32,000 bases of DNA. Source: Nostoc punctiforme PCC 73102 (GTDB lineage: Bacteria > Cyanobacteriota > Cyanobacteriia > Cyanobacteriales > Nostocaceae). The stretch's first letter is position 1, and every line of letters starts with the position of its first letter. Both the position numbers and the translations under genes were made by a program. The notes under the pieces were generated by a model that was given only the letters and a program-made list of their open reading frames with translations, ran no database searches and was not told the DNA's origin. Shown piece after piece: positions 995 to 32,000 of this stretch. The DNA is taken from positions 60,001 through 92,000 of the forward strand of contig NC_010631.1 in NCBI RefSeq assembly GCF_000020025.1, given 5' to 3'.

Positions 995-1040
995 TGCTGA
1001 ATGGTAAGATGATCAGAATGTAACCGAATTAAAGGCTTAT

Positions 1041-13144: not shown

Positions 13145-15087
13145 ATCCTCTTTGTACCCAACGTTATAATCCTGATAGCGCTGAAAATTGTTTAGCATGT
13201 GGAAATCCATTGATAATAAACGGGCGTATTCGTTTGCTACGCCCGTTGCGTTCCTTGGAGCAAAATCCATATACTTACACAGATGTCTTTGAAATTGAGG
13301 ATATTGGCACAGAAGAACATCCTCAGCCTCAAATAAGAGTAATGAAAGTATTAAGATGGATTGATGATTCTAAGTTAGTTGAGCTACTTAAAAGAGAATC
13401 ACTCATATTACAAATCTTAGACCATCCTGGAATTCCCAAGTCTAATAGGGAAGATTATTTCACATTTAGGCTGAATGATAATCTTCTAGAACTACATTGT
13501 CTAGTTATGCATAAGTTTGAAGGAGAGAATTTAACTCAGTGGGTACAATCTTATGGACGAATTAGCCAAGAAATGGCTTATGAATGGTTATTGCAGTTGA
13601 TGGAGATTCTTGATTTAGTTCATCGGTCTGGTTTCTTCCACAGAGATATCAAACCAGAAAACATTGTTCATCAACCCGACGGGAATTTAGCACTTGTTGA
13701 TTTTGGTGGAGCAAGACAGCTTAGTAGAACCTACTTTGCCAAAGTCAGTACCAGTGGAGGAACTACTACAGGATTCGGTAATGGTTACGAAATAACTGCT
13801 GTTAGGACAGCTTGTTACTCTCCCTTAGAGCAAATTCATGGACAAGCCGTACCACAGTCAGACTTTTACGCTTTAGGTAGAACTTTTGTTTACTTAGTCA
13901 CAGGTATTTCTTTAATTGAAATCATAATGGACGAGCAGACAGGAAGACTAATTTGGAGAGATAAAGCACTTCACATAGATAAATTTCTGGCTGATTTACT
14001 TGATGATATGATGGCTCCTTTTGTTGGGCAGCGCCCACAAAGTACTCAAATAATAATACAGCGTTTGGAGCGCTTACCTAATCAATCAAAGTTTAATCGA
14101 GTAATTAAATCAAAGCCGTTTCAACTGAGTGTGTTTGTATTAGGTTTATTAAGTATTGTTGGTTTGATATATGCATCCCTACCTCTAGTAGCAAAATATT
14201 ATTTAGATTCCGGTAAAAAAGCTTATAAAGAAAATCAAATTGACCAAGCTGAGAACGATTTTCAAAAAGCAGTATATTTGAATACTAGCTTAAAATACAC
14301 AGTAGCAGATTATTTTTTAAATCAAGGTAAAGAAGCTTATAAAGAAAATAGGATTGCTGATGCTGAAAAAGACTTTCAAAGAGCAATAAAGTATGGACAT
14401 AATTTAAATAATTCAGTCTCAATTTTTTACTTTGAGAAGGGTTTACAGCATCAAAATAACCCTAAAATTGCTAGAAAAAATTACGAGCTAGCTATAAAGT
14501 ACAACCCGAAAGACGATACTGCGTATAATAATTTAGCAATTGCGTGTCAGCAGTTATATGACTATAATTGTGTTAACAAAACTTACGAAATAATTTTTAA
14601 GTTAAAACCTAATAAATGGGAATCGCATTACGGATTAGGTGATTTTTATGATGAACAGGGAGAATATGATTTAGCAGAAAAGCAATATGAAATTGCTATT
14701 AGAAGTAGCGATCAAGCTATATTTGCTGTTGCGGCTTTAGCAAGATTGAAAAATAAAAAAGGGGATCATACAGCAGCAGCTACTTTAGCTTTAAAAGGTT
14801 TGCAGAAAACTAACAATCGGGAATTACAAGCATCCCTGTATAAAGATTTAGGATGGGCAAGGTTAATGGAAAATAAGTTAACTGAAGCCGAAAGATATCT
14901 AGAAAAAGCAACAAAGTTAGATAGCGAAAGAACAGATGCATATTGTTTGCTATCTCAAATAGAAGAATCATTAGGTCAACTTAATTACGCCAGAGCTTAT
15001 ATAGATGCTTGTATCTTGACTAAATCTAGCCTACCAGAAGTGTTTCGCTGGAGACAAGAACTGCTAGATCGGATACTTGATAAATGA
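13129..15087 (+). CDS. Ser/Thr protein kinase with N-terminal 4-Cys zinc ribbon, one TM helix and a C-terminal TPR region
   Basis: CINPLC...CLACG zinc ribbon. Kinase motifs RVMKVL (Lys), HRDIKPEN, VDFGGAR and YSPLEQ. TM helix FQLSVFVLGLLSIVGLIYASLPLV, followed by ~290 aa of TPR-like repeats. The GTG start at 13129 overlaps the upstream stop by 16 nt. Confidence 0.9.
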   Translation: MGYCINPLCTQRYNPDSAENCLACGNPLIINGRIRLLRPLRSLEQNPYTYTDVFEIEDIGTEEHPQPQIRVMKVLRWIDDSKLVELLKRESLILQILDHPGIPKSNREDYFTFRLNDNLLELHCLVMHKFEGENLTQWVQSYGRISQEMAYEWLLQLMEILDLVHRSGFFHRDIKPENIVHQPDGNLALVDFGGARQLSRTYFAKVSTSGGTTTGFGNGYEITAVRTACYSPLEQIHGQAVPQSDFYALGRTFVYLVTGISLIEIIMDEQTGRLIWRDKALHIDKFLADLLDDMMAPFVGQRPQSTQIIIQRLERLPNQSKFNRVIKSKPFQLSVFVLGLLSIVGLIYASLPLVAKYYLDSGKKAYKENQIDQAENDFQKAVYLNTSLKYTVADYFLNQGKEAYKENRIADAEKDFQRAIKYGHNLNNSVSIFYFEKGLQHQNNPKIARKNYELAIKYNPKDDTAYNNLAIACQQLYDYNCVNKTYEIIFKLKPNKWESHYGLGDFYDEQGEYDLAEKQYEIAIRSSDQAIFAVAALARLKNKKGDHTAAATLALKGLQKTNNRELQASLYKDLGWARLMENKLTEAERYLEKATKLDSERTDAYCLLSQIEESLGQLNYARAYIDACILTKSSLPEVFRWRQELLDRILDK

Positions 15088-15120
15088 TAAGATGCTCAAA
15101 CAAATTATGTTTGTAAAACA

Positions 15121-16125
15121 ATGAAAAAGCTGATGTTTTTTGGGGGAATGTGCTGTTTAACTTCTCTAATACTAATTCATCTACCATTGCTAGCAAATGT
15201 ACCGCTCATAAGAGTAAGAAGAAATCAGGTTCATTGTGATCCACAAATGGGAAGAATAATAAGTAAGGGTCACAAGCACTTGTCAGCAGGGAGCTTAATT
15301 TGTAAGGGAGATACGATAGAAGTTGTGAATGGTGATTATGTAGAATTTTTATGCTTTAGTTCTGGAAACATTTTAAATTTATCTAGTGGAACTATTCCTC
15401 TTGATAAATGTGCAGAACCTGACGAAGCCTTATCCACTTGCAATCCAACCAATACTAATGCGTGTCACATACGAAAAGGTGGCACAGAAGGGAGCGATGA
15501 GCCAACAATCATTTCTCCTTATAGCACATCAACATTGAATTCCCGTCCAGAAATAACTTGGACTGCTGTTAAGGGTGCTACTTCTTACAAAGTCAAAGTA
15601 AAAAGTTACGAGTTTGGATGGGAAAAAGTTGTAAATCAAACTCGGCTTGCCTACCCAAGTGATGAAAAAGAATTTCAGCCGGGTACTCCATATACAATAG
15701 ATGTCTTTGCATATATTGATGGTCAAGCTTTTAGCTATGATGAAACGTTTGTGGACGTATTGTCTGTAGCAAAGCAAGAACAAATTGCACAAAAGATTAA
15801 ACGCATCAAAGACTTAGGGCTACCTCCAGATGAAACTATTCTTGACGTAGATGCTATTTATACGGCAGAAAATCTTTTAAATGAAACAATTGAGATGTTA
15901 AAAATGGCAACAGCAACTAATAGCCAAAATCCGACTCTTTACAGAGTACTGGGCGATCGCTATCTCTTGGCCAAGTTGCCAAAGGAGGCGAAATCCGAAT
16001 ACATCAAGGCATCTGAGTTAGCGAAAAGCAGCAATAATTCCAAAGAGTTCCAAAAAGCCCAATCAGGGCTACAAGTAGTGGAATTTTACAACCAGCTTCC
16101 AACCAGGAGGAACCCACCCCAATAA
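15121..16125 (+). CDS. Secreted Cys-rich protein with a DUF928-like/FN3-like beta domain and a TPR-like C-terminus
   Basis: Hydrophobic N-terminal signal MKKLMFFGGMCCLTSLILIHLPLLA and seven Cys in the next ~100 aa. The segment RKGGTEG...IISPYS..RPEITWTAVKGATSYKVKVKS...FQPGTPYTIDVFAY...AIYTAENLLNE parallels the DUF928 layout as I recall it. The C-terminus is TPR-like (YRVLGDRYLLAKLPKEAKSEYIKASEL). Confidence 0.6.
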   Translation: MKKLMFFGGMCCLTSLILIHLPLLANVPLIRVRRNQVHCDPQMGRIISKGHKHLSAGSLICKGDTIEVVNGDYVEFLCFSSGNILNLSSGTIPLDKCAEPDEALSTCNPTNTNACHIRKGGTEGSDEPTIISPYSTSTLNSRPEITWTAVKGATSYKVKVKSYEFGWEKVVNQTRLAYPSDEKEFQPGTPYTIDVFAYIDGQAFSYDETFVDVLSVAKQEQIAQKIKRIKDLGLPPDETILDVDAIYTAENLLNETIEMLKMATATNSQNPTLYRVLGDRYLLAKLPKEAKSEYIKASELAKSSNNSKEFQKAQSGLQVVEFYNQLPTRRNPPQ

Positions 16126-18590
16126 TAAGCCTTCTTATATTTAGGATTTGACAGTAAACTTAATTGCGCCTGACGTAGTGCTTCTGCTTTTGGCAAGCCA
16201 TTGTTCAAACCTTTATAAAATTCTTGCATAAGCAAAGCGGTAGAATCGGCATCCACGCGCCACAAAGTAGCAACAGTACTACGCGCTCCAGCTTGTGCAG
16301 CCATTCCTGCAATACCCATTGCTGACTGCTTGTTGCCTTTAGCTGTTTCGCAGGCGCTGAGAACAAGTAACTCAATTGCATCTTGACTATTTTCAGTTTT
16401 ACCTCTGATTAAGCTGTCAAAGTCTCTAATATTAATTAGCTTGTCATAGGCAACCAGTACTGTTTTGAGTGGGTCAGAACTAAATTGACCGTGGGTAGTA
16501 ATATGTACAATAGGAAAATTATTTTGAGTTAGTTCTTCTTTAAACCTTTTAAGGGTAAACTTCTTGTCTAACAAGGCAACTGACGATTTAGTTTGTTTTT
16601 CTACATTTTCTATTTCTTGTTTAGATGGGAGCAAATTCTCCATATTTTTAGGTGCATTTGGATCTATAGAACTGGGGCTTAGTTTTGATAGTCCAGCTAT
16701 TAAAGCTATCATCTGGTTTTCATGTAAGACTCTAGGTTGTCTAATTCTGGAACCTAAAGTTTCTGCAATACTGTAACGCTCTATTAAATAATGTTTTCCA
16801 TCATATAACAATGCCATTGGTATGCTTTGGAAAGATTTATCTAAAGTGAATACGAGTGTTCCTGATAGGGGTAGATATGTTTTTATTGGTGCAATTAGCT
16901 TTTCATAAATTACTTGAGAAGAAGTAGTAATGCTACTTTCGCCTACTTCAGAAAAATTTTCATTTTGTAAAGCTTCTAAAAGATGATCTATCTGGAATCG
17001 AACTAGTTTAGATTCAATAGAATGGTGGTGAAGTGAGCCATCTGTTGACTGAGCAATTACTTCTATAGTATCCCCTAAATCAATAATGTGAATTACTGTT
17101 GGGGCGCTCTTGAGGTTCTGAAGCTGATTCAAAGCAACAAGGTCAAGCTTGCCACATCTGAGAAAGTTTTCTAAGCGTGCTATCTGCAATCCTTCATTTA
17201 TCTCTATTACTCTTTTTAAATCAGGATTAGGTGATGTTAAGAGTAATCGCATATAATTACGATATGTCGGCTCCATTTCTGACTGAAAAGAGAACTGCAA
17301 ATCTCCGTTAGTTGACAAAAGACTATCACGCACTTCAGTCATGTTTGCGATCGCAGCATTATAGTTCTGAATCGCTAACTCAGTTTTTCCCTGCTTTTGG
17401 TAAATTAGTCCTAACTGCTGCTGCCATTCGTAAGCAATATCCGAAGCCCGAATTGATTGAGCGAATCCTAAAGCCTTCGTAAAATATGCCTGTTTTTGTT
17501 CTGTTTGAGTTGATACTTTACCCAAAGTACCAAAACTATAGGATAACCATCGGATACTATTAATAGTTTCAGCCATTTTCAATGCTAATTTAGCATATCG
17601 AATCGCTACTGATTTCAATTGTTCATCTGGGATCTGGCTGAGGTTATTAGCAAAATTCAACCGAGCATGAATAGATGGCTCAAGTGATAACTCCAAAAAG
17701 GCAGAAGAATTGCCATCTATTTGATTTACCAATGCTCTAATTTGTTGATTAACTTTCTGATGGATGTTCGCTTGATTTGGTTGATGACTGAGCCATTTTT
17801 CCCAACTGATCAGTAAAGTTAAGTGATTCAACTGAGCTTGCAGTTTAGCTGATTTTGAGATATTTGGGATGTTTTCTAGTGTTTGGTAATACCAGAGTGA
17901 TTTTTGCGCTTTTTGTGGAATAATGTTAGCAATCTGCTCTCGAAAAAGTGGTTCCTCTATCCAAGAATATTTATCTTGTAATTGCTGATAAATTGTCTGT
18001 TCAATATTACCTAGAGACAGATAAATCCCACTAATCTTTGATGAAGATACAAGTTTTGCTAGCGTTAACGTTTCTTGTAGAACTGTTTCAGATTCATTTA
18101 ACTTTCCCAAAATCCGCAAGACTTCTCCGAGATTCTGTAATCCAAGTAAGTTAACCGATGTTGCTTCCTGCTTACCAATTAATGTCGTGAGTTGCTCTTT
18201 TTGAGTAAGAGCAGGTTGCTGCAAAGTCGTGTCGCAAATACCTAGAATTGTATTAAAGTTTAAAGCTTCTAAAAGTGTATTGCAAGCTTGTTTATGTAAT
18301 CCTAATGCTTGAAAAGCAAGGTTTTGATTAATCAGGCTTTCCGTAATTCCCTCTTGGTCGTTTAGTTGGCGATATATTTTGGTAGATTCCTGCCAAGTTT
18401 TTAAAGCTTCATTCGCCTGATCTAGAGCTAATTGTTCGTGACCTGATGAAGTCAGGGATGCCGCTTGATTTTTGAGAAATTCTTTTTCTTTTTTTACAGT
18501 CTGGGCAGGGGAAGAGGATTGAATTAAAATTAAAGACAGCCCTAGAATGCCTGAGAAAAGATATTTAAAGCAACATTGAAGTGAGATCAT
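16086..18590 (-). CDS. Secreted TPR + CHAT domain (caspase-fold) protease
   Basis: Signal peptide MISLQCCFKYLFSGILGLSLILIQSSSPAQ, N-terminal TPR-like helices, and a CHAT His/Cys dyad VHITTHGQF and LVLSACETAKG with the YYWGGFLLVG tail. Starts 12 nt after the upstream gene's stop. Confidence 0.9.
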   Translation of the reverse strand: MISLQCCFKYLFSGILGLSLILIQSSSPAQTVKKEKEFLKNQAASLTSSGHEQLALDQANEALKTWQESTKIYRQLNDQEGITESLINQNLAFQALGLHKQACNTLLEALNFNTILGICDTTLQQPALTQKEQLTTLIGKQEATSVNLLGLQNLGEVLRILGKLNESETVLQETLTLAKLVSSSKISGIYLSLGNIEQTIYQQLQDKYSWIEEPLFREQIANIIPQKAQKSLWYYQTLENIPNISKSAKLQAQLNHLTLLISWEKWLSHQPNQANIHQKVNQQIRALVNQIDGNSSAFLELSLEPSIHARLNFANNLSQIPDEQLKSVAIRYAKLALKMAETINSIRWLSYSFGTLGKVSTQTEQKQAYFTKALGFAQSIRASDIAYEWQQQLGLIYQKQGKTELAIQNYNAAIANMTEVRDSLLSTNGDLQFSFQSEMEPTYRNYMRLLLTSPNPDLKRVIEINEGLQIARLENFLRCGKLDLVALNQLQNLKSAPTVIHIIDLGDTIEVIAQSTDGSLHHHSIESKLVRFQIDHLLEALQNENFSEVGESSITTSSQVIYEKLIAPIKTYLPLSGTLVFTLDKSFQSIPMALLYDGKHYLIERYSIAETLGSRIRQPRVLHENQMIALIAGLSKLSPSSIDPNAPKNMENLLPSKQEIENVEKQTKSSVALLDKKFTLKRFKEELTQNNFPIVHITTHGQFSSDPLKTVLVAYDKLINIRDFDSLIRGKTENSQDAIELLVLSACETAKGNKQSAMGIAGMAAQAGARSTVATLWRVDADSTALLMQEFYKGLNNGLPKAEALRQAQLSLLSNPKYKKAYYWGGFLLVGSWL

Positions 18591-18602
18591 TTTTATATCT
18601 TT

Positions 18603-20858
18603 TTACCACTGAGATCCTGAAAAACAAGAACTTGCAGACAGTGAAGCATTATCCCAGGTTGGATTTGCTTGGTCTGTTGTCAAAACTAAATTTCCTTGAG
18701 AATCCCGAATCAAAACGTTGGCTTCTATGATTTGTGTAGCTTGGTTACTTCTTAATGATTTTGGATTATGTGAATTATTCAAAGCTGGAACTGGAACAGA
18801 GTTACTTTGCTCAACATTGTTAAACATCAGGTTATTAGGCTTAGATTGGAGATTGCGAGTACTACTAACTCGAAAACTATTTACTTCTGTGCCTGCTCGT
18901 GCCTGACAAACTGGGGTGATTTCAGGAGTTATTGGAATTACTTCTGCTTTTAGTTGAGTAGGGTAAATGTTAGTATCAGCGATGTTATATTTAACAGTAC
19001 CGTTAATTCCGTACTTGGAACTAGCTGTTATTAAGCTATTAAGGGAAAGGAATAGTCCCCTAGCATTAATTGTGATATTCCCACCACGGCCCTCAAAGGC
19101 ATTTGCGGTGATGCTGCTATTTTTTATTGCAACTAAGATATCTGTGTTGATAGTGATGTTGCCGCCGTCGCCATTACCCCCAGCAGTCGCAGTAATGATA
19201 CTGTCACGTAATTGTAAGTCACCAGAGTGTAAGAAAATGTCGCCTCCTTCGCCCTTGGTGCCGCCTTCTGTGCCAGCTGTGATAGTACCTCTGTCTAGAT
19301 TGATACTGTCTGCGTTGATTCGGAGGGTTCCTGCATTTCCTTGTCCTGGCTGAAAGTTGAGATTTTTTGGAATTTTTTCACCACCAATATTTACTCTCCC
19401 ACCATCAGTGACAGTTAATCGTTCTGCTTCGATTGTCAGATTTCCGGCCTTTCCAGTTCCTCCAGTTCGAGCTGATATTCTGCTAGGAGAATTACCAGTT
19501 AATGACTTTCCGGTTACTTGCACTTCTTCGTCAGCAGTTATAGATACGTTGCCTCCCGAACCCTGCCCAAATGTGCCTGATGATATCACTCCTCCAGAGC
19601 GTAGACTTAAGCGCGCAGTTTCAATCTTGATGTTACCGCCAGAACCGGTAGATCCTCGTTGGGCCAAACTTGTTATGGAACTGCCTGCATTCGCTGTTGG
19701 TTTTCGCAGCACTTCTACTGAATCATGAGCTAAGACCTCTATGGAACCAGCATTTCCGAAGCCATACGTACCAGCAGCGATCCCTGCTCCATCCCGGATA
19801 TTTAACCGCCCAGTTTCAATATTGATGTTGCCACCAGATCCGGTAGCTCTTGGGTAAACTAGGCTCGATATACCAGTGTTGAAAAACGAATCAACTTCTG
19901 GTAATCCCACTAGGTTCACTGAATCTGAAGCATTAATTTTCAATGTTCCCCCCGTTCCTGCTCCTAATGTGCTGGACTCAATCTGAGAACCACCGTCTAG
20001 CATTAGCTTCATGGCTTGTATTTGAATATTGCCACCACCATCACCACTGGCATCAACTGCTGCTGCTCCAGACAACTGGATCTCTCCAAAGGCTGAGATG
20101 CCTGAATATCCCAACGTCCAGCCTTTATCTGTAGGAATCAGGTTGACCAAACCCGCTCCAGCCACGCTGCCTAATTCAATCTGTCCCCCTGTTGTTTTAA
20201 GCGTTCCACGTGAGAGTAATATATCACCGCCCACCAAAGCTAAGGTTTGATTTGGCTGCACGCGTAGACCAGAACTAGTATCTATGAGGTCTGAAGTTTT
20301 TCTTATACCTTGACCGTCTCCAAAGACGTGAATATTTCCAGCATTTGTCCCAAATCCTAATCCCACAGGCACGCTCACTGTCAACAGAGGTTCTGCACCA
20401 CTAAGGGGTTTAGCATCGAAGGAGATGCCATCAGCAAATTTAATATTACTAGCAGTAGTGCCGAAGAACGAGCCGCCAATATTCAGTGAAGCATTCGGCC
20501 CAAAAATAATCCCATTGGGATTAATAAGAAATACGTTGGCTATGCCGTTAGCTCGAATTAAACCATCAATATTAGATATTGAGCTACCCGTCACTCTTGT
20601 CAAAATGTTTTGGATGTCTAGGGCATTTTTGAAGTAAACTGTGCTTCCTGTGGGCACAGAAAACTGTCCAAAGCTATGGAACAAATTGCTTCCGAATTGG
20701 GTTCCTCCCGTTATCGCACTGGTATTATTACCCTCTCGTGTGACGCTGGAGTTAACTCTTAGGGTTGCATCGGGAACAATTTGTGCCGCAATTGGCTCCC
20801 AAGGCAATAGACAAAACAAGGTGCTGCCCTTGATAAGCCAGGATAAAGCTTTTGTCAT
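18603..20858 (-). CDS. TpsA-like exoprotein: filamentous-haemagglutinin N-terminal (TPS/haemagg_act) domain + parallel beta-helix repeats
   Basis: Signal peptide, then the TPS motifs NLFHSFGQFSV and FLINPNGIIFGPNASLNIGGSF. Downstream are repeated G-rich units (TGSGGNINIETGRLNIRDGAGI / TGSGGNIKIETARLSLRSGGVI / GRGGNITINARGLFL). Confidence 0.9.
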   Translation of the reverse strand: MTKALSWLIKGSTLFCLLPWEPIAAQIVPDATLRVNSSVTREGNNTSAITGGTQFGSNLFHSFGQFSVPTGSTVYFKNALDIQNILTRVTGSSISNIDGLIRANGIANVFLINPNGIIFGPNASLNIGGSFFGTTASNIKFADGISFDAKPLSGAEPLLTVSVPVGLGFGTNAGNIHVFGDGQGIRKTSDLIDTSSGLRVQPNQTLALVGGDILLSRGTLKTTGGQIELGSVAGAGLVNLIPTDKGWTLGYSGISAFGEIQLSGAAAVDASGDGGGNIQIQAMKLMLDGGSQIESSTLGAGTGGTLKINASDSVNLVGLPEVDSFFNTGISSLVYPRATGSGGNINIETGRLNIRDGAGIAAGTYGFGNAGSIEVLAHDSVEVLRKPTANAGSSITSLAQRGSTGSGGNIKIETARLSLRSGGVISSGTFGQGSGGNVSITADEEVQVTGKSLTGNSPSRISARTGGTGKAGNLTIEAERLTVTDGGRVNIGGEKIPKNLNFQPGQGNAGTLRINADSINLDRGTITAGTEGGTKGEGGDIFLHSGDLQLRDSIITATAGGNGDGGNITINTDILVAIKNSSITANAFEGRGGNITINARGLFLSLNSLITASSKYGINGTVKYNIADTNIYPTQLKAEVIPITPEITPVCQARAGTEVNSFRVSSTRNLQSKPNNLMFNNVEQSNSVPVPALNNSHNPKSLRSNQATQIIEANVLIRDSQGNLVLTTDQANPTWDNASLSASSCFSGSQW

Positions 20859-21099
20859 AAATCATGGTAAAAGTTTCTCGGTTGGTCTCTGAATTATTTT
20901 TAGTACAGACTTGCACCCTGCACCCGAATGATTACCAATTATACAGATTAATAGTAACGGTAGCGTCTTGTCAAATTGGATTGGAGACAGAGGCTTTCCT
21001 CTAGTAGTAAAGCTTTTCTCTAGTAGTAAAACTGTTAATATTTACTAAAATCCGAGCGAAAGTGATCGGGAGTAAAATACGTTTGTGGATTTATCAGTG

Positions 21100-21876: not shown

Positions 21877-22305
21877 ATCAGCCCCTTCATTCTAAATAAA
21901 ACTCAATGTCGAGTGTGGGTTACAACTCATCTCAAACCCGATACGGAAAAACTACGGGTTTAAACCTAGATGAGATTTATATAGTCACACCAAATCCAAT
22001 ACCCTCTGTCAAATAATCAAGCTTTAACCGTTGTTTTACACGTCTGTTGAAGAGGGTATTTCTAGAATACACCCAAACAGTATTTTGTTTTTGTGGTGAC
22101 TCTGGTGTGGTGTTTTTTTTTGATAATTGCTCTATGAGATTTTTTAATGAGTTTTATATTTGGTAGTGCTTTAAGGCTGCAAAATATAAAAAGCAATGAA
22201 AAACCCCAACCTATTTAAAGGATGGGGACATAAATAAAAATTCTATATTTCCATGATGACACAATTCAATATTTGTTCAACTGCTGTCAGCCTGGAGGTG
22301 GAATA

Positions 22306-23247: not shown

Positions 23248-23288
23248 TGGTGCAGCGAGGAAACAATAATTTAATGCAACAAAGTTTA

Positions 23289-23657
23289 CTAAACTCGTTT
23301 AGTTTCAAATATTTCTCGCCACAATTCAAATTCCGGACAATTGCACCAAAGGGTAACGAACCCATCAAAAAGTTTAGTTTCTGAATTTTGAACTCCCCTT
23401 GGGAGAACTTGGATCAAGATAGGAATATCCAAATCACATTTCCAATTTTCTATTTCTTTTTGAATTTGGGCAATAGTGTCTTGATGGAATCCTCGGTCGT
23501 TGTTGGAACACTGAACAAGTAAACATCCATTATCAGAATCTTTGACTCGCTTGAGCGAGAAATTAATCTGCGTCCACATTGATTGGACTTCATTGAAAAT
23601 ATTAGGCAAACCATAGTGATTGCCTAATATTACCTTTCGGCGTTTTGATTCACCCAT
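23289..23657 (-). CDS. Hypothetical protein (122 aa)
   Basis: Clean ATG-initiated ORF convergent with the previous gene. No recognisable motif. Confidence 0.45.
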   Translation of the reverse strand: MGESKRRKVILGNHYGLPNIFNEVQSMWTQINFSLKRVKDSDNGCLLVQCSNNDRGFHQDTIAQIQKEIENWKCDLDIPILIQVLPRGVQNSETKLFDGFVTLWCNCPEFELWREIFETKRV

Positions 23658-23746
23658 AAGTCCCCCTCAGCAATACAAATTTTGACAAGGATGACGAAGA
23701 AGATAAGGAATCTCCTGACGACGAGTAAGCTCAATAGCGCTCAGAT

Positions 23747-23763
23747 TAACCCTCTGAGGGTTA
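23747..23763. promoter_or_regulatory. 17-bp perfect palindrome taaccctc-t-gagggtta upstream of the 122-aa gene
   Basis: Perfect dyad, 90-106 nt upstream of the start at 23657 (minus strand). Confidence 0.35.
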
Positions 23764-24421
23764 TTAACTACTAATCCCATTGTAACGATAAATCAAGGGT
23801 TTCAAGTATTTTGCAGTTGCAAGGATTGGGGATTTTGCTTTCACCGTATCTGTCATTCTTGCACGCTTTGCTGCTGGCGGCTGTTGAGATAGAGTACAAC
23901 CTGGTTTGTCAGCAGCAGAAGTGACGATACAGCTAGTAAACAATAGGTTAATCCAACAAATACACAATGCAACACCGCAATAAATAACTCGTTGTATGAA
24001 AACGGTAAGCGTACCACTCTGTGGAAGCAAGCGATCGCCCAGCGTCTGGTAGAGTTGCCATGCCGGAATGGCTTATCGCTTCAAAAAGAAATCTGAGTAG
24101 GTCATAGGGAGTGTCCTTAAAAAGCCGCCATTAACGGACAGTTAGGGACTTCCAAATAAATGACGACCCAGCCGCTACTAGTTAGCCAACTTTATTTTGA
24201 CAGGTAGTGTTCTAAGTGGGAATTTAGTCAAATTGAGAAGGATAGGAAACAACTTGCTTCTTTGGTCTTGGCGATCTCCCGCCTTGAAAGCCACATTGAG
24301 CAGTTGGTGCTTTCTTTAAATCTTCAAGTCGATGGCGAAGGAAATTCTGACAATGATAGCCACTGGCTTTTTAGGGAAAGCTCCGGTAGTGTGGGAGAAA
24401 AAGATATATAGGATGCAGGAA

Positions 24422-26605
24422 TCAATTAACCTCGAAAGCGATCGACAAAGTAGCCATATCAGAATTGCTCACTGGTGTGGCTACAATACCACCACCACGT
24501 ACATCTCTCAAATCATTCAGCAAATCACCAATCACTTCATCTGGACTTGTGGATGAACCTTTTAACTCTACTACTCCAGCATCACGCTTTTGTTCTGCTG
24601 CTAAAGCTCTCATTGTTTTGACAGCATTCTTTAGTGGTTTGCGACTGACAATAATTAATGCTTCCCCACTACCTTTCTCGATCGCCTGTAATTTTAGCTC
24701 TTGTGGATTGCCAACTACTAGTGTTTGCTGTGGCGCTAATTGCATTGACTCCTCAGGTGCTGACCATTTATAGGGAAATATCACCAATAAATCACCACTG
24801 GAATCAAATAGCAAGATAGAAATATAGACAGAAGTCGATTCATTATTGGTCACTTGAAATTGAAACAGTTGTTGCAGAGGTAATTTGTGCGAATAAATTT
24901 TTTGTGAGACTTGACGATTCTTTTGGCTCCGTGATGTGGCAGTTTTAGCTATAATTTTGCTAGGTTGCTCTACTAAATTCAGGCAAACTTCCACATCTAG
25001 TTCTGACGAATTGGTATTCAAAGTTTTTTTGAGAATACGAGTTGCTAGCAAAGACTTGAGTTTAGGTTCTAAACGCTGGACAGCATCTTTTACTGCTTCT
25101 CTTGCGTCACCAAAAGATTGTAATACTAGTTCCTGTCCTGCGGTAAACAAACCAAGACTATTAACCACAGGCAAGTTTTCTGTAACTTGTTGCTGCAATT
25201 GTCTTCGATAGCTATCTGTCATGCGACTGAAGATGTATTGCACACCATTTGGATATGGTGGTTTTTGATTCTGCGCTGTTATAGCTGCGATACGATTGAT
25301 AGCTTCTACAAATTCTTTTGCTGCATTTGTATCACCAGCTAGAGAAGGATCTAAACCAATACTTAACTTTAAGTCAGCCGGAATTACACGAGTTGATTCT
25401 TGCAACAGCATTCCTGGACGCAGAGAATTTATCCCTCTGTTGTCTACCAGTTCTGCTTCTGCTATTAAGCCACGACGAGGGGATATCAACTTTACGGTTG
25501 CTGAGGTTTGTCCTTGATTGTTGATGACTGTAAAAGTAGCTCCTGGTGTAAATGCTTCTAAACTTTCTTTGTCTATTCCTCCCAACCATAATGTTGCTTT
25601 TTTACCTTCACTTTTAATAACAACTGCATCAGTAGGGAAAACTTTATTTTTAATAAAATAGACTGGTTTATTTTCATCACCATCTATTAAAGGCTCTTGC
25701 CGTGAAAGTGATTTAATGCTGGAAGTAATTTGAGAAATCATACTCCCAGCACTACCAGTTTGTTGCCAAAGATACTGCGTCATCAAGTAAGTAAATGCAC
25801 CAGCCGAAAAGCCATCAAAAGTGGCATCTGCTGCTATTTGTTCCCTTTTAGCCGCAGCAAAAACTATTCCTTTTCGCTCACTAGCACAGCGAAGACTGAT
25901 AAGTTTTTCTAAGGGGATATTCAACTGTTTGATCCAATGTTCTTGATAAGCAATTTCCTCTGGAGATGGCTGCAAATTATCATTAGATGCAGCACGCACA
26001 ATAAAGTTACCTCGTGTACCACCGCCGGAGAAGCAACTGTCTAAAACTACAGTGACATTTTCGGTTTTTAAAGCCGATATTAACAAAAACAGGGTACGTC
26101 CCATAATGTCCTGTGTGACACCATTGGCACCATCATCAGATGGTACTAGGGTGCTGTTATAGTTATCATTTCTGCATTGCTGAATGGGGTCAGGGTCTGG
26201 TAGTCGAGAACCATGACCAGAAAAATGGAAAACTACTACATCTCCTGGTTTAGCTTGCTTAATTAGATGTTCTTCAAATGCTTCTAGAATATTTTTTCGG
26301 GTGGGTTGTTTATCGGCTGGGTCACTTGTTAATTTCAGGATATTGTTGGGTTCAAAACCAAAGCGATGGGTTAAAAGTTTTTCCTGTAAATCTACATCGG
26401 TGATACATCCTCTCAAGTTATCACCTCTCTCATTGTTTAGATAATTATTAATTCCCACTAAGAGTGCTAATTTTCGAGGGGTGCTTTGTGATAAAACTTG
26501 AGCGTAGCGGTTTCCCTTTTGCATGATATCGATTTGGCTTAAACCCAAAGTGGCAAAGGTTGAAGAAGCAAATTGGATAAAATGACGGCGTTTGATAAGG
26601 TACAT
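24422..26605 (-). CDS. Orthocaspase (peptidase C14 caspase domain) with a twin-arginine signal and C-terminal DUF4384-like domain
   Basis: Tat-type N-terminus MYLIKRRHFIQFASSTFATLGLS. Caspase His/Cys dyad FHFSGHGS and VVLDSCFSGGG. DUF4384-like YISILLFDSSGDLLVIFPYKW. ATG at 26605 is preferred; the track start at 26653 is TTG. Confidence 0.9.
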   Translation of the reverse strand: MYLIKRRHFIQFASSTFATLGLSQIDIMQKGNRYAQVLSQSTPRKLALLVGINNYLNNERGDNLRGCITDVDLQEKLLTHRFGFEPNNILKLTSDPADKQPTRKNILEAFEEHLIKQAKPGDVVVFHFSGHGSRLPDPDPIQQCRNDNYNSTLVPSDDGANGVTQDIMGRTLFLLISALKTENVTVVLDSCFSGGGTRGNFIVRAASNDNLQPSPEEIAYQEHWIKQLNIPLEKLISLRCASERKGIVFAAAKREQIAADATFDGFSAGAFTYLMTQYLWQQTGSAGSMISQITSSIKSLSRQEPLIDGDENKPVYFIKNKVFPTDAVVIKSEGKKATLWLGGIDKESLEAFTPGATFTVINNQGQTSATVKLISPRRGLIAEAELVDNRGINSLRPGMLLQESTRVIPADLKLSIGLDPSLAGDTNAAKEFVEAINRIAAITAQNQKPPYPNGVQYIFSRMTDSYRRQLQQQVTENLPVVNSLGLFTAGQELVLQSFGDAREAVKDAVQRLEPKLKSLLATRILKKTLNTNSSELDVEVCLNLVEQPSKIIAKTATSRSQKNRQVSQKIYSHKLPLQQLFQFQVTNNESTSVYISILLFDSSGDLLVIFPYKWSAPEESMQLAPQQTLVVGNPQELKLQAIEKGSGEALIIVSRKPLKNAVKTMRALAAEQKRDAGVVELKGSSTSPDEVIGDLLNDLRDVRGGGIVATPVSNSDMATLSIAFEVN

Positions 26606-26696
26606 AGCAGAATTTTTAACTCTTTGAAATTGATAGAAATTAAGTAAGTTCAAGAGAAGTTTATTTTCTTAATAAACTTTGATAAATGGATATATT

Positions 26697-29213
26697 TTAT
26701 TTTGATATTAAAGGATTATTTGTACTTCCAATAATTTTGAATGAAGCCCAGTAGTGTGGATGCCTCCATTTAGGATTTTTAATCATTTTTATTTGAGCTT
26801 GGCGTAGGGCAGTCGCTACATTTTTACCTTGGAGCAATTCCTTATAAAATTCCATCATCAAATCTACTGTTGCATTATCTGAGATTTGCCATAGGGTAGA
26901 ACCAACAGTATTAGCTCCTGCAACTAAAAAAGCGTTGCTAAGTCCGATGGTACTATCAGGATGAGAAACACCTAAAGCTGTTTGACAGCTACTCAATATA
27001 ACCATCTCAAATCTCACACCAGGGTCATTCTCGTAAAGAAAACGAGCAGTAATTTTGCCTTCAGATAAAGCAACAAATGATTCTTCAGGAGCTTCAGAAA
27101 ACAAAATGCCATGACTAGCAATATGAAGTAGAGGCAATTTTTGTGGTATAGGAATATCAAAAAATGTTGTTTGATTGATAGAATCTAATAATACTTTTAA
27201 ATTTGCATCTTTACCCAAAATGGGTTTAACATTCAATAGTTCAGCAATAGATTTAACTTCTGTTTCAGTACCTGGTAAGCGGGAAAAATTTAATTGATGC
27301 TTGCGACCATTAAAAATAACTGTGTATGGATTTGAGAATAGAGGATTTCCTATTAAAAATATATTTCTCTGTGTTTCATTATTGTTAATGTCAGGAAGTT
27401 GAACATTACTTACACGTTCGTCATCTTCAATCAGTAATTGAGCCGTAACTGATGGTAGGTAAAAAATTTCATATTTTTCAATTAGGTATTGTCCATCATT
27501 TGTACGTAAAGCACTAAAAGGAATAAAATCTAGAGTATTATCAGTCACAATCGCTATTCTATTTGCTTTCAGTTGAATAAGACCTTCTTGAATTACCTGA
27601 GGTAAAAGAATTTTATAAAGTTTGTTTAACTCAATATCTAAATCTTCATTGCTTAATTCCGATTTTTGGGTGACTTGAAAGATACTTCTGCTTGCACCTT
27701 GTAGAGCATTAATATCTTTATCATTTGAAGCGTAAGGTAGTTGTTGTAATATTCTATCTATTACTTTATCTGGGTTTTCTATACGTGAATTAAAAAATTC
27801 ACCATTCTCCCCTAATAACCAAACCGAGTATCCATATTGGTCTTTGCTATATATTAACAAAGGTGCATTGATCCTTTTTGCAGTTAAAATAGTTTCATCA
27901 TATGAAGCTGGATAAACCTCCCCTACACTACCAGACATTGATGGATTTAATGAAAGACGACTATTTGGATGAGTGCGTCCCATCCAGTCAACCAATGCTC
28001 TAGAACGTATTTCTTCAGAAATCTGCATGGCTTCTTGGTGATAACCCGCTTTTCCAAAAATAAAGACTAAATCTCGACCAATAGGTTGCAAAAATTCGGA
28101 AACAATATATGACGACCTATGTCCAAATGAACCACCTGCTCTTACAGTATTTGAACGAAGATATTGAAAATTTAATAGTGCAAAATTTAACCTTGGTAAA
28201 AATTGTGATGGTTCTACTTGGTCAAGGTTTTTCCTATATTTAAGATAAAGTTGCCAAATTTGCTTAAATTGTTTTAAGCTTAAATCTTTTTCTACAATCA
28301 TTCCCTCTGCTGCAAAAACTTCCAGAATTGAAGTTTGAGCAAATTCATCAATAATAGCCTTGAGTAATATTCTTTCTTGCTCTGGATTCTGTGCTAATGA
28401 TACCATCTGATTCAAACTTGCTATCCGCTCAGAATTATTACTAGCTAATGCAGCAAGCCTGTGAATTAATAATAACAAATATATTTGTTCATCTTTATTT
28501 GTTAAAGGCAATTTTTCTTTGATTTGCTTTAGCCTTAAAAGAAGTGCTTTGCTGTCTTCTGAAACAAGTCTTTGAATAGGTGCTAAATCTTGACCAGCCT
28601 GATTTTGCTGCCTCAATTCATCTTGTTGTAAACGCAATGCTACAGCTTTCCCTCTCTTGTGATAATTTAGCTCTTGTAATAAATACCATATATTAGTTGA
28701 AACAACATCAATTCCTTTAGTATCTTGATAATAAGTAGCAACTAACAATGCAAATCGATAGAAATTGTATGCTTTTTTATAATTTTCCTCTGTTCGTTTT
28801 TTGACTCCTATACCTCCTACTTCTCTAGCAATTGTAAGTAAATCACTAGCAGATATTTTTCGCAATTTCCTGTCTTCCTCCAGAATTCTCATTAAATGGG
28901 GATTTTCCAAATCAATAATTACTAATTCGGAAATACTCTCAGCAATAAAAACATGAGCTTCCTCTTGATTTTGGATAAGTACTATTCCTTTTTTATTTCT
29001 ACGTACCAACTCTTGAAGCTCATTAATCAATCTTTGATTTGTTTGAGGAGTAATACTTTGTGCTATTTTTGGCTCATGTGGTTTATTAATTTTTACATCT
29101 ACATTATTAACAATGTTATAACTTTTGGATTGTCCGAATACATCATCGAAACATAAAAAGATAGAGGAGGTTACACTAAAAATTGCTACTAATAAAATTT
29201 TATTTGTTTTCAT
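26697..29213 (-). CDS. Secreted CHAT domain protease with a long unassigned N-terminal region
   Basis: Signal peptide MKTNKILLVAIFSVTSSIFLCF. CHAT dyad LHIASHGILF and ILSSCQTALG with the HYWASFKIIGS tail. I recognise no motif in the first ~500 aa. Confidence 0.85.
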   Translation of the reverse strand: MKTNKILLVAIFSVTSSIFLCFDDVFGQSKSYNIVNNVDVKINKPHEPKIAQSITPQTNQRLINELQELVRRNKKGIVLIQNQEEAHVFIAESISELVIIDLENPHLMRILEEDRKLRKISASDLLTIAREVGGIGVKKRTEENYKKAYNFYRFALLVATYYQDTKGIDVVSTNIWYLLQELNYHKRGKAVALRLQQDELRQQNQAGQDLAPIQRLVSEDSKALLLRLKQIKEKLPLTNKDEQIYLLLLIHRLAALASNNSERIASLNQMVSLAQNPEQERILLKAIIDEFAQTSILEVFAAEGMIVEKDLSLKQFKQIWQLYLKYRKNLDQVEPSQFLPRLNFALLNFQYLRSNTVRAGGSFGHRSSYIVSEFLQPIGRDLVFIFGKAGYHQEAMQISEEIRSRALVDWMGRTHPNSRLSLNPSMSGSVGEVYPASYDETILTAKRINAPLLIYSKDQYGYSVWLLGENGEFFNSRIENPDKVIDRILQQLPYASNDKDINALQGASRSIFQVTQKSELSNEDLDIELNKLYKILLPQVIQEGLIQLKANRIAIVTDNTLDFIPFSALRTNDGQYLIEKYEIFYLPSVTAQLLIEDDERVSNVQLPDINNNETQRNIFLIGNPLFSNPYTVIFNGRKHQLNFSRLPGTETEVKSIAELLNVKPILGKDANLKVLLDSINQTTFFDIPIPQKLPLLHIASHGILFSEAPEESFVALSEGKITARFLYENDPGVRFEMVILSSCQTALGVSHPDSTIGLSNAFLVAGANTVGSTLWQISDNATVDLMMEFYKELLQGKNVATALRQAQIKMIKNPKWRHPHYWASFKIIGSTNNPLISK

Positions 29214-29321
29214 TTTTTTAATTATCCAATGTCCTAATTGTTTATACTCAAAAATCAGATTCTAAGCTTTATTAGCTGTTAGCTGCAACAATACTAGTTA
29301 AGGAATCTTACTTTTTACTGA

Positions 29322-31775
29322 TCATTCTGCTTCACCAATGAGTGTGAAAGCTGCCCAATTTAGGGGTTTATTGGGATATTGTTCTTTGATTTTGAGCATG
29401 GCTTGGCGTAAGGCTTGGGCTTTATCAAGTTTATTTTGGTTGAAATTGGTATAAAATTCGGTCATCAATTCGGTGGTGGGTGAATCAGGAACAGACCAGA
29501 GGGAAACAATTACACTAGGAGTGCCGGCAATAAATAGCGATCGCGATAACCCAATCACGCCATCACCAGTAATCCGACCTCTACCAGTATTGCAAGCACT
29601 GAGGACAACTAAATCTGCATTCAGTTTTAGGCTGAGAATTTCTTCGGCAGTGAGTAAGCCATCATCCTGACTGCTCGGTGCAAGCGCGATCGCACTTTGC
29701 AAACCTTGGAAGCCATCAAATAAACCATGTGTTGCTAAATGGATGATTCTGGCTTGGGATAGTTTGGCTTTAATGGCGGTTTCAGTGGCTTCATTACCAG
29801 TCAATGCTTTTGTATTTAGGATGGGTGCGATCGCTTCTGCTTCACGTTTAGCACCTGGTAGAGTTGCTAATTTTTGCGGTTTTTCGCCAATTTTAGGTGC
29901 AAAGCTGGGCATGGTGGGATTACCCACGACTAAAGCTTCGGAGACAGAGGCTTGCTTGACTTTATCTCGTTGCTGGTGTGTGAGTTCTAATACTTGAATT
30001 GATGGAGAAGTAAGGATAGTGTGTTTTTCAATTAAGTATTTGCCCTGTTCATCTTGTAGTGCAGGGAAGGGAATGAGGAACAAGTTATCTTGAGGGACGA
30101 AAATAACACGCTGATTTGGGTCAGTGGGTAAAAGGTCAGCAATGGGTTGAATGAGAAGTTTATGTAGTGTTTGTAAGCTTTTTTGCTGTACTTTTTCATC
30201 AACAGGATTAATAACTTTTGCTTCAATAATACTACGGCTTTTATCATCAATACCGAGAGATGCGCGAGTAGTGGTAATTAGGCCTTTTAGAGAGGTATTT
30301 TGTTTTTGCCACAGTGGTTTGAGGTCAGTTTTCTGAAATCCTACTTCACCTGTGGGTTTGATTACCCAGATAAAAAGTTCTGATTCTTTAGTTGTTTGTT
30401 TACCTGCAATTTTGAAATCATCAAAAATAATTGAATATTGAACCAAGGTTGCATTTTGCACCTTGGCAATTTTTTTAATTTTCTCAATTGTTGCTCTTGG
30501 AATCTCTTCCTCGCTTTGTAAGTTAGGTGACAATCGAGATTGAAGTAATTGCACAAATGCCCTAGCGCGACTGCGTTCAGATATTTCTAGTGCATCATTG
30601 CTTTTATTCTGGGCAATCAAAACTTTTTGTAGCAATTGATAAGTGACAGTTTGTGTTTCAAAAATTGAAATTTTATTAGCGTCACTTAATCTTGGTCGTA
30701 GAGACTCTAAAAGCTTAATTCCATCCTGGAGAGTTTTTTCTGCTTCCACAAACTTGCCAGATTGATAAAACGTACTACCTATATATCTAAGAGTTCGTGC
30801 TTCACCCACCTTGTCACCAATTTCTTTAAAAATAGCTAAAGCTTCTCCAAAAAATTTCAGCGCTTGAGGAAACTGACCCTGATAATTGTAAACTCTGCCG
30901 ATGTTGCTAAGAGCAACTCCTTTACCCTGTCGATCGCCAACTTCTTTAAAAATGGCTAAGGCTTGCTGAAATAACTCTTGTGCCTGCGGATACTCGCCTT
31001 GATTGCGCCGAAAATCTCCAATGTTGTTGAGAGAAGTTCCTTCACCGCGACGCTCCCCAAGTTTTTTAAAAATAACGAAGGCTTGTTGATAATATTCTAG
31101 AGCTTTAGGATACTGATCTATAGTCCTGTAATAAACGCCAATGCCATTGAGGGTTAATGCTTCTTGCTTCTGGTTGCCAATTTGTCTGAAAATATCTAAA
31201 GATTGCTGTAAGAAATTTAGCGCCTGGGGATACTGCCCTAGACTAGTATTGATATATCCCAGTTCGGCGAGGGTAAAGCCTTCGCCAGAGCGATCGCCTA
31301 CTTGTCTGCGAATAACTAAAGCCTGTTGATAAAACTCTAGGGCTTGAGGATATTGCCCCAAACCTTCATAAACTTTTCCAATATTATTGAGAGCAGTTCC
31401 TTCATTCAAGCGATCGCCTAGTTCTCGGAAAATATTTAAAGCTTGCTTGTAAAAGTTTAGCGCTTGAGTATAGTCACCTAGTGCGCGTTCAACTATGGCA
31501 ATGTAGTTGAGACTCAACGCTTCGCCATTGCGATCGCCAATTTCTTGATAGATAACTAGTGCTTGTTGAAAGAATTGTAGTGCTGCTTTAGGTTGACCAA
31601 TCTGAATCTGCTGATCGCCTTCTTGATAAAGACGTTCTGCTTCTGCTTTGCGGTCAGCAGGAGTTTGCGCCAGTACTTGTTCTACTTGAGTCTGAGCTTT
31701 GAAGCTGATTGGTGACTGTGAAAAAGTAGTAATGAAAGTGGCGATCGCAATTAAACAAAACCTTCTAAGGTACAT
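29322..31775 (-). CDS. Secreted TPR (8 x 40-aa repeats) + CHAT domain protease
   Basis: Signal-like MYLRRFCLIAIATFITTF, with ATG 31775 preferred over GTG 31823. Eight 40-aa TPR units (QALxFYQQALxIxxEIGDRxGEG...). CHAT dyad IHLATHGLF and VLSACNTGRG, with the NWAAFTLIGE tail. Confidence 0.9.
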   Translation of the reverse strand: MYLRRFCLIAIATFITTFSQSPISFKAQTQVEQVLAQTPADRKAEAERLYQEGDQQIQIGQPKAALQFFQQALVIYQEIGDRNGEALSLNYIAIVERALGDYTQALNFYKQALNIFRELGDRLNEGTALNNIGKVYEGLGQYPQALEFYQQALVIRRQVGDRSGEGFTLAELGYINTSLGQYPQALNFLQQSLDIFRQIGNQKQEALTLNGIGVYYRTIDQYPKALEYYQQAFVIFKKLGERRGEGTSLNNIGDFRRNQGEYPQAQELFQQALAIFKEVGDRQGKGVALSNIGRVYNYQGQFPQALKFFGEALAIFKEIGDKVGEARTLRYIGSTFYQSGKFVEAEKTLQDGIKLLESLRPRLSDANKISIFETQTVTYQLLQKVLIAQNKSNDALEISERSRARAFVQLLQSRLSPNLQSEEEIPRATIEKIKKIAKVQNATLVQYSIIFDDFKIAGKQTTKESELFIWVIKPTGEVGFQKTDLKPLWQKQNTSLKGLITTTRASLGIDDKSRSIIEAKVINPVDEKVQQKSLQTLHKLLIQPIADLLPTDPNQRVIFVPQDNLFLIPFPALQDEQGKYLIEKHTILTSPSIQVLELTHQQRDKVKQASVSEALVVGNPTMPSFAPKIGEKPQKLATLPGAKREAEAIAPILNTKALTGNEATETAIKAKLSQARIIHLATHGLFDGFQGLQSAIALAPSSQDDGLLTAEEILSLKLNADLVVLSACNTGRGRITGDGVIGLSRSLFIAGTPSVIVSLWSVPDSPTTELMTEFYTNFNQNKLDKAQALRQAMLKIKEQYPNKPLNWAAFTLIGEAE
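30683..31640 (-). repeat. 120-nt periodic coding repeat (TPR units) inside the TPR-CHAT gene
   Basis: Recurrent ...cgatcgcc(a/t)a(c/t)ttct...aaaat(a/g)...ctaa(a/g)gc(t/c)tg(c/t)tg every 120 nt. It is in frame and encodes the 40-aa TPR unit. Confidence 0.85.
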
Positions 31776-32000
31776 GGCTATGACTGAGTAGGGAAGATGA
31801 ACCTGATTGTATATATCTCCCACAGGAGGAAGGTTATGTAAATATATGGTAACTGCCTAGCTAGTAGGATTTGAGAAAAGCAAAAGAGAGACATTACCAA
31901 GTAACGCATCAGTAATAACTAGAATAAGCTAATCGGCACATAAGTTGCATAATAAGAAGATGAAGCCGTTCAAAAGCAACTATGCCGCCACCAGCCAAGA

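Follow-up and report, generated by a model that had tools for sequence, protein, structure and literature searches.

Three putatively exported caspase-fold proteases encoded in tandem on a Nostoc punctiforme plasmid: a candidate cell-envelope proteolysis module

The stretch of DNA considered here (hereafter the window) comprises 32,000 nt of contig NC_010631.1 of Nostoc punctiforme PCC 73102, and toward its right-hand end, on the minus strand at 24422-31775, open reading frame (ORF) listing and translation place three consecutive genes for proteases of the caspase fold: a TPR-CHAT protease gene, a second CHAT protease gene of a rare family that we call CHATmid, and a Peptidase_C14-DUF4384 orthocaspase gene that we call OC. 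An earlier note on this DNA had described just this arrangement, three consecutive minus-strand genes with gaps of 108 and 43 or 91 nt and intact His/Cys dyads, and its coordinates and motifs read exactly as it gave them. The TPR-CHAT frame reaches upstream to a GTG at 31823 (29322..31823), with ATG 31775 as the likely start, and public assemblies also call the product at 817 aa. The OC frame (24422..26653) opens at a TTG, and its true start is the ATG at 26605, where all orthologues begin and which gives the 727 aa of the NCBI product. The three genes are probably co-transcribed; a terminator scan served solely to note spacers that contain no terminator-like site (Table 1), and two terminator-like hairpins lie 3' of OC on the minus strand, at 24175-24163 and 24141-24125. 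Homologous regions that were compared with the window are identified, where a distinction is needed, by locus numbers of the form L0xx.

The catalytic machinery of all three proteins is legible in their sequences. TPR-CHAT matches the Pfam family TPR_12 five times and CHAT at an E-value of about 1e-78, with the CHAT domain at aa 531-815 (Pfam 547-831 on the 833-aa product of the GTG frame) and a HLATHG/LSACNTG dyad formed by H683 (codon 29729-29727) and C728 (29594-29592). CHATmid matches CHAT (PF12770) at E 1e-73, with the domain at aa 529-830 and a HIASHG/LSSCQTA dyad at H701 (27113-27111) and C743 (26987-26985); in PDB 7x8a the Csx29 residues that align with this pair stand at positions 585 and 627, the catalytic His585 and Cys627 of the Craspase literature. 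An AlphaFold2 (AF2) model of CHATmid, built on five sequences, has a pLDDT of 55, too low for a fold search, with moderate confidence for the N-terminal helical-repeat region only. The two CHAT domains of the trio share just ~28% identity with each other, and C14 is a different family.

The orthocaspase matches Peptidase_C14 (PF00656) at E 1.3e-22 (81 bits against a cut-off of 21.4; aa 60-323 of the 743-aa product of the TTG frame), and is composed of a metacaspase-like domain at aa 44-325 followed by a C-terminal extension that ends in a DUF4384 beta-sandwich at about aa 538-727. Its dyad motifs, FSGHGS and LDSCFSGG, supply H131 (codon 26215-26213) and C191 (26035-26033), and both of these residues, together with D70 (of GCxxD) and D189 (of DSC), are invariant in an alignment of 35 sequences reaching 47% identity. 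We take D70 and D189 to be the acidic S1 pocket of a metacaspase, as assigned from established metacaspase structures, and cleavage after Arg or Lys is predicted from this pocket. The AF2 model of the protein (pLDDT 82, pTM 0.81) matched AtMC4, AtMC9 and Yca1 in a Foldseek search at E 2e-15 to 6e-9, which places it in the caspase/hemoglobinase fold, and it aligns with complete metacaspases over 300-380 columns, such that a p10-like portion may be present. The C-terminal 400 residues were modelled as a small beta-barrel, an alpha/beta domain and the DUF4384 beta-sandwich, with only weak Ig-like matches. Directly after the catalytic cysteine lies a low-confidence loop that holds a near-invariant GGG(T/K)R198GNxxxR204 motif.

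The His/Cys dyad is kept in 57 of 62 members of the OC family. The other five have YS, YK or YR in its place and are the "YS pseudo-orthocaspases" published by Klemencic et al. 2019; all five retain the Tat signal and the pocket aspartates, while four are without both R198 and R204 and the fifth is without R204. They are encoded in L023 (7545-12232), L043 (1494-10252), L046, L051 and L066. A dyad-intact copy stands beside the pseudo-orthocaspase in direct tandem in L023 and with a TPR-CHAT gene between the two in L043, and the pseudo-orthocaspases of L043, L051 and L066 adjoin a TPR-CHAT gene.

We based the assignment of export on motif conservation among homologues and on a crude hydrophobicity scan. 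The earlier note's claim that each protein has an N-terminal export signal is borne out by conservation of these signals over dozens to ~100 homologues, with a near-invariant RR-x-F-L/I-Q-F in OC. The orthocaspase opens with KRRHFIQF within a predicted twin-arginine (Tat) signal of approximately aa 1-39, MYLIKRRHFIQF…AQVLS↓QS (arrows mark putative cleavage sites). The motif [K/S/N]-R-R-[H/Q]-F-[L/I]-Q-F is present in 64 of 65 OC homologues (66 loci, filamentous cyanobacteria), and in a MAFFT alignment of 62 full-length members the arginine pair is found in 61 and the phenylalanine in 59. It is followed by a weakly hydrophobic stretch rich in Gly, Ser and Thr, a basic c-region and a V-L-A↓Q site, from which the first strand of the caspase domain is only a few residues away; the window's own protein has an h-region with a Kyte-Doolittle value of 1.07, K30 and R33 in the c-region, and the site V-L-S↓Q. 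From the RR-x-F motif, h-region, c-region and cleavage site we predict Tat-dependent translocation, a route whose substrates traverse the membrane already folded. The low AF2 confidence of OC residues 1-41 is what would be expected for a signal peptide. A conserved "RK" after the signal peptides was considered as an orthocaspase cleavage site and rejected; in OC it is the start of the first C14 beta-strand.

The CHAT proteins carry putative signals of the Sec type. That of TPR-CHAT spans ~27-36 aa (MYLRRFCLIAIATFITTF...VLA↓QT), and the TPR-CHAT proteins that adjoin OC elsewhere have a basic n-region, a hydrophobic core of 12-15 residues and a conserved V-(L/V)-A-Q-T site. CHATmid has a signal peptide at aa 1-27 (…DDVFG↓QS), with a comparable peptide ending V-x-G↓Q in all five of its relatives. 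A further CHAT protease encoded in the window (hereafter the 16-kb CHAT) bears a signal peptide ending in …SSSPA↓QT, as do 95 of 112 full-length relatives, and those exceptions that were inspected (e.g. P0229 and P0239) are gene calls that begin within the signal peptide. A positive n-region, a hydrophobic h-region of 10-15 aa and small residues at -3/-1 are present in TPR-CHAT, CHATmid and the 16-kb CHAT alike. Kyte-Doolittle values for the h-region of 2.6-2.8 (Sec type) or 1.07 (Tat type) set the proteases apart from the window's cytoplasmic proteins, and the hydrophobicity scan found no internal transmembrane (TM) segments in them. We consider it highly probable that all four proteases are exported soluble proteins.

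Linkage of the genes was counted over 39 OC loci with at least 3 kb of flanking DNA on both sides. A CHAT gene is directly adjacent to and co-oriented with OC in 17 of the 39, in either order, and wherever OC shares 55% identity or more with that of the window (nine loci) it has an adjacent TPR-CHAT gene on the same strand. CHAT genes occupy 18% of OC-flanking positions versus 1.1% of positions at least four genes away, and the linkage is far above chance, with a p-value that is only indicative since the loci are not phylogenetically independent; the pair is found co-oriented and adjacent across many genera. The CHATmid family is rare (five 90%-identity clusters in the whole database), and its gene stands exactly between TPR-CHAT and OC in Calothrix brevissima NIES-22 (L068) and in three metagenome contigs (L071-L073); in L068 and L071/L072 the trio aligns collinearly with the window for 6.1-6.3 kb, and nucleotide identity is ~75%. 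The closest OC relatives, from Nostoc sp. HK-01 plasmid2, Nostoc sp. NIES-4103 and Amazonocrinis CENA67, have the pair without CHATmid. Conservation of the three-gene order, which the earlier note had proposed to look for by comparative genomics, was thus found, and since pair and trio are linked in this manner the alternative that the note itself had named, independently distributed paralogues with no conserved linkage, does not describe these genes.

The GC content of CHATmid (0.32-0.33 at 27001-29000, versus 0.37-0.42 in the two flanking genes) had suggested a recent foreign insertion unique to this plasmid. This was rejected, as the order is collinear in Calothrix and in the metagenome contigs; given such synteny in distant hosts, recent acquisition does not explain the low GC, and the indel would therefore reflect either an old insertion or repeated loss. 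At the core of this arrangement is the pair of OC and a Sec-exported TPR-CHAT, widespread in filamentous cyanobacteria, with CHATmid lying between the two in one sub-lineage. In L068 (12632-14531) the trio OC is represented by two separate products, of 425 and 224 aa, which probably reflects a frameshift or a pseudogene; the strain has another intact copy (P0054). A 4.4-kb contig binned to Candidatus Sericytochromatia (L057), a non-photosynthetic relative of cyanobacteria, has a CHAT gene with the gene of a Tat-signal orthocaspase after it; provided that the contig is correctly binned, and it may not be, export in that organism cannot lead to a thylakoid lumen.

The trio travels as a block. 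The Nostoc sp. C052 plasmid pC052_D (L081) is 95% identical to and collinear with the window over 15 kb (8860-23924), and it carries a TpsA-CHAT cassette, described below, without the trio; as homology ends at 23924, the trio is an independently assorting block of ~7.9 kb (23925-31849). At its upstream edge lie 72 nt (31849-31920) that match, at 96% identity, part of an IS66-family transposase region on a plasmid of Nostoc sp. UHCC 0870, and public short-read assemblies likewise break at this fragment.

What lies upstream of the pair in relatives bears on its likely function. The pair is preceded, in 12 related loci and on the same strand, by a gene for a caspase-CHASE2 membrane protein, whose caspase domain is CHAT-like, and by one for a secreted DUF928-type protein. 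Six of these loci, in chromosomal relatives (L002, L003, L008, L021, L059 and L062), also have a DUF1822 gene, preceded in five of the six by a gene for a ~460-aa protein that gave no Pfam or NCBIfam match and is at most a candidate sigma factor. A sensing system made up of caspase-CHASE2 proteins, DUF1822 and an extracytoplasmic function (ECF) sigma factor has been described (Kaur, Iyer, Burroughs, Aravind 2021; PMC8195603). The recurrence of CHASE2-caspase, DUF1822 and DUF928 genes upstream of the pair leads us to propose that the proteolysis would be wired to an envelope-sensing or conflict circuit. Other relatives have genes for signal-peptide-bearing S8, C11 and reprolysin peptidases and TpsA/TpsB genes alongside; the latter stand between OC and TPR-CHAT in L048, and in L071 and L072 the trio and TpsA-CHAT-TpsB modules are neighbours. 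The most distant relative of CHATmid (37% identity), in L074 of JGI metagenome 3300044808, is found among signal-peptide-bearing proteases, in a run of C11, reprolysin, C14 and two TPR-CHAT genes together with a gene for a 1251-aa outer-membrane barrel protein, and the run has the look of an analogous cluster of exported proteases.

The 16-kb CHAT (Pfam E about 1e-51; dyad HITTHG/LSACETA, H700/C747) forms a cassette with a TpsA-type exoprotein, on which an arm of three genes converges, encoding a STAND NTPase (HTH_VMAP-M9 and NB-ARC), a Ser/Thr kinase with a single TM helix (aa 329-356) and TPRs after the helix, and the secreted DUF928-like p334. This cassette (11702-20858) is kept on many Nostoc plasmids (L078-L081), several of them from plant or lichen symbionts. 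No TpsB gene was found in the window or in L078; one is present in L079, L080 and L071, and some of the Nostoc plasmids with the cassette have a divergent TpsB. The earlier note had counted four exported caspase-fold proteases in 16 kb. All four are present, with predicted signals, but they fall in two independent modules, as is seen on pC052_D; the 16-kb CHAT is assigned, on comparative grounds, to a module separate from the trio, and the tally of four is partly a coincidence of a mosaic plasmid. That the replicon is of plasmid type, as the note held, agrees with the DUF3854 protein encoded at 7204-10677, whose counterpart on the 95%-identical pC052_D bears the annotation of a CyRepA1 plasmid replication protein; the collinear stretch includes this replication gene. 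At the left-hand end of the window (437-4083) an insertion sequence interrupts a RecD2-type helicase gene. In a 2025 paper the plasmid recD (Npun_AR019) is discussed as the sole component of RecBCD that N. punctiforme has; if the helicase core at 2458-4083 is Npun_AR019, which we assume from its position, that recD is without its N-terminal domain.

Table 1. Positions of the protease genes, their spacers and junctions, and other features of the window
Feature	Coordinates	Strand	Remarks
TPR-CHAT protease gene	29322..31775	-	817 aa from ATG 31775; five TPR_12; CHAT; predicted Sec-type signal peptide
TPR-CHAT/CHATmid intergenic spacer	29214..29321	-	108 nt; no terminator-like site found on minus strand
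CHATmid, second CHAT protease, rare family	26697..29213	-	838 aa; predicted signal peptide, helical-repeat N-terminal region, CHAT
CHATmid/OC intergenic spacer	26606..26696	-	91 nt (43 nt with TTG start); no terminator-like site found
OC, putative Tat-signal orthocaspase	24422..26605	-	727 aa; metacaspase-like domain, beta-barrel, alpha/beta domain, DUF4384
CHATmid with flanking spacers, indel segment	26597..29314		cleanly absent from otherwise collinear TPR-CHAT/OC pairs
Downstream junction	23925..24421		pC052_D collinearity stops at 23924; similarity to other OC loci stops at ~24380
IS66-family fragment, upstream block edge	31849..31920		similarity to the DUF928/TPR-CHAT intergenic region of chromosomal relatives stops here
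Exported CHAT protease (16-kb CHAT)	16086..18590	-	834 aa; 12 nt downstream of TpsA gene; export predicted
TpsA-type exoprotein	18603..20858	-	TPS domain aa 25-280
Convergent arm: STAND NTPase, Ser/Thr kinase, secreted DUF928-like p334	11702..16125	+	cassette member genes
HHH_RecD2 N-terminus	437-988		split recD2
ISAZ013-family transposase, two frames	1041-1637 and 1694-2272		insertion in recD2
RecD2 helicase core	2458-4083		split recD2

Taken together, we favour the reading that the trio specifies an exported, functionally coupled envelope protease module, and place its probability at approximately 0.6. The three genes would constitute one co-inherited, probably co-transcribed unit, whose two CHAT proteins would leave the cytoplasm unfolded via Sec while the orthocaspase would cross the membrane folded via Tat. 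Once there, three dyad-intact clan-CD cysteine proteases would most likely act together in the cell envelope, in the periplasm, as a regulated extracytoplasmic proteolysis module, sharing targets or acting on each other, with the TPR arrays choosing partners, and the exported proteases might serve an envelope-sensing or conflict circuit, either as its output or as the source of its signals. Co-transcription, periplasmic location, substrate choice through the TPRs, activation between the proteases and the biological role are matters that we infer from the features described above. A true activation cascade among the proteases is a doubtful proposition, though one worth entertaining. Its most elaborate form we regard as distinctly improbable, namely a caspase-type cascade in the filament-continuous periplasm, in which Sec-exported TPR-CHAT proteases and a Tat-exported, Arg-specific orthocaspase would activate one another or make peptide signals that a caspase-CHASE2 sensor reads and relays to a sigma-like factor. 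Such a cascade, if real, would parallel the apoptotic caspase cascade outside the cell and serve filament-wide decisions on death, differentiation or defence.

Several observations weigh against the envelope module. The DUF4384 match of the orthocaspase, at 26.8 bits, is marginally under its 27-bit Pfam cut-off. Promoter and terminator scans of the window returned hits at or below the expectation from shuffled sequence. The window lacks the caspase-CHASE2, DUF1822 and sigma-like genes, the block being interrupted by the IS66 fragment at 31849, and about half of the distant OC homologues (40-49% identity) are without a CHAT neighbour, in housekeeping-like contexts. Moreover, Tat and Sec signals in cyanobacteria serve the thylakoid lumen too. 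As such, the earlier note's placement of these enzymes in the periplasm or outside the cell stands insofar as the export signals are conserved, and falls short insofar as the lumen is another possible destination.

The earlier note had suggested a proteolytic cascade or an arsenal for attack and defence, and both are tentative readings. In the second of these, which we judge unlikely, the proteases would be released to the surface or the medium, possibly via two-partner secretion, and be directed at competitors, grazers, phage particles or host tissue and not at the cell's own envelope proteins. It would be in keeping with the recurrence of TpsA/TpsB genes beside exported CHAT genes, including their position between OC and TPR-CHAT in L048, with the distant CHATmid relative of L074, whose neighbours include a large outer-membrane barrel and peptidases with signal peptides (C11, reprolysin, C14), and with the many carriers that are plasmids of symbiotic Nostoc strains. 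However, neither a TPS domain nor any other signal for secretion across the outer membrane can be recognised in the trio proteins, TpsB is missing from the window, the trio and the TpsA cassette are inherited separately, and the TPR scaffolds and the link to CHASE2 and sigma-like genes look regulatory and not degradative. Delivery of the enzymes by their Tat and Sec signals to the thylakoid lumen, for the biogenesis or turnover of photosynthetic complexes, is in our estimation an improbable alternative. The YS, YK and YR pseudo-variants of the OC family share the Tat-like N-terminus, a lumenal or periplasmic role was proposed for the YS variants by Klemencic et al. 2019 (PMC6426788), and many distant OC homologues are found in housekeeping-like neighbourhoods, all of which would be compatible with such a destination. 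The trio itself, however, is a mobile plasmid-borne block of patchy distribution, its recurrent neighbours are envelope components (the CHASE2 sensor, DUF928, TpsA/TpsB, the S8 peptidase), and a homologous pair is present on the contig binned to the non-photosynthetic Sericytochromatia, a weak point given the possible mis-binning.

Given the expansion of CHAT and caspase genes in Nostocales, the array could also be the product of duplication and plasmid mosaicism, that is, paralogues juxtaposed with no functional coupling. The plasmid is evidently a mosaic (IS elements, the split recD2, breakpoints at 23924 and 31849), the closest relatives do without CHATmid, and the 16-kb CHAT is an unrelated module. 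We nevertheless hold mere juxtaposition to be very improbable, as the members of the trio are too divergent to be recent duplicates, the pair is adjacent and co-oriented, in either order, in many genera, and the order of the trio is retained at 75% nucleotide identity in distant hosts. Least credible, to our minds, is that these are cytoplasmic death effectors whose N-terminal segments are anchors or non-functional and whose catalytic domains face the cytoplasm. Most of the literature does treat orthocaspases and CHAT proteins (HetF, Csx29) as intracellular; on the other hand, a positive n-region followed by an h-region would put the C-terminal domains outside even if uncleaved, small residues are conserved at the cleavage sites, the arginine pair hardly varies, and there is no second TM segment.

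Bacterial caspase homologues are usually framed in terms of cytoplasmic programmed cell death. A large and widely conserved family of dyad-intact orthocaspases with a putative Tat signal, genetically tied to a TPR-CHAT with a signal peptide and, in many genomes, to a CHASE2-caspase module, shifts the question of their role to the cell envelope. The unit found here is small, plasmid-borne and present in a genetically tractable model strain, Nostoc punctiforme, which makes that question testable.

An extracytoplasmic location of bacterial caspase homologues is not unprecedented (PMC3501461, PMC6426788), and here the earlier note, which had set it apart from the usual cytoplasmic picture, overstated the departure: Asplund-Samuelsson et al. 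2012 (PMC3501461) reported many prokaryotic metacaspases with N-terminal helices, probably signal peptides, and speculated on extracellular roles. The orthocaspase-DUF4384 architecture is likewise already catalogued. In the searchable literature we did not find a Tat signal on the dyad-intact majority of the OC family, a conserved operon-like pairing of OC with a Sec-exported TPR-CHAT, the three-gene variant with CHATmid, or the pair downstream of a caspase-CHASE2 module, and that literature offered nothing usable by way of exoproteome evidence.

Several known systems share parts of this arrangement. Clan-CD His/Cys proteases do work outside the cytoplasm, as gingipains (C25) and clostripain (C11) exemplify, and the fold is therefore compatible with an extracytoplasmic location; unlike the trio, these belong to other families, take T9SS or Sec-only routes and have no TPR or DUF4384 modules. 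FhaB/FhaC with SphB1 resembles the cassette of the window in that a TpsA gene is coupled to an exported protease gene, 12 nt downstream in the present case and with TpsB in relatives, although the cassette's protease is a CHAT cysteine protease versus a subtilisin autotransporter, and the cassette is not part of the trio; a role for the 16-kb CHAT in TpsA maturation is suggested by this analogy only. Csx29 of the type III-E Craspase also has TPR repeats followed by a CHAT protease, with catalytic His and Cys that align, but is cytoplasmic and RNA-activated, whereas the CHAT proteins of the window carry predicted signal peptides. CHATmid, the only CHAT protein so scored, reached 35 bits against the cut-off of 300 for the NCBIfam Csx29 model, and no CRISPR-associated or gRAMP genes were found within the window. 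The EACC2-caspase-CHASE2/ECF sigma/DUF1822 system (PMC8195603) has its like directly upstream of the pair, on the same strand, in the six DUF1822-bearing loci, whereas the downstream genes for an exported DUF928 protein, TPR-CHAT and Tat-orthocaspase are not described there.

As for the orthocaspase itself, MaOC1 of Microcystis and the metacaspases AtMC4, AtMC9 and Yca1 have the same C14 fold, His/Cys dyad and acidic S1 pocket, but are cytosolic, have no signal peptide and lack the ~400-aa beta-rich C-terminal extension with DUF4384, at ~21% identity to OC. Far closer are the YS pseudo-orthocaspases (e.g. SyOC; PMC6426788), which belong to the same family, align over the full length at ~40% identity, and share the RR-x-F-L-Q-F N-terminus, the Asp residues of the S1 pocket and the overall length; the window's OC differs from them in keeping the His/Cys dyad and the GGG(T/K)RGNxxxR motif, both lost in the pseudo-variants. 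Klemencic et al. 2019 (PMC6426788), who did not report the CHAT linkage, noted the Tat-like N-terminus in the YS variants and presented it as a mark of inactive forms with a proposed lumenal or periplasmic role. The homologues compared here show that this Tat-like extension is not confined to the pseudo-variants, as the dyad-intact majority of the same family carries it as well.

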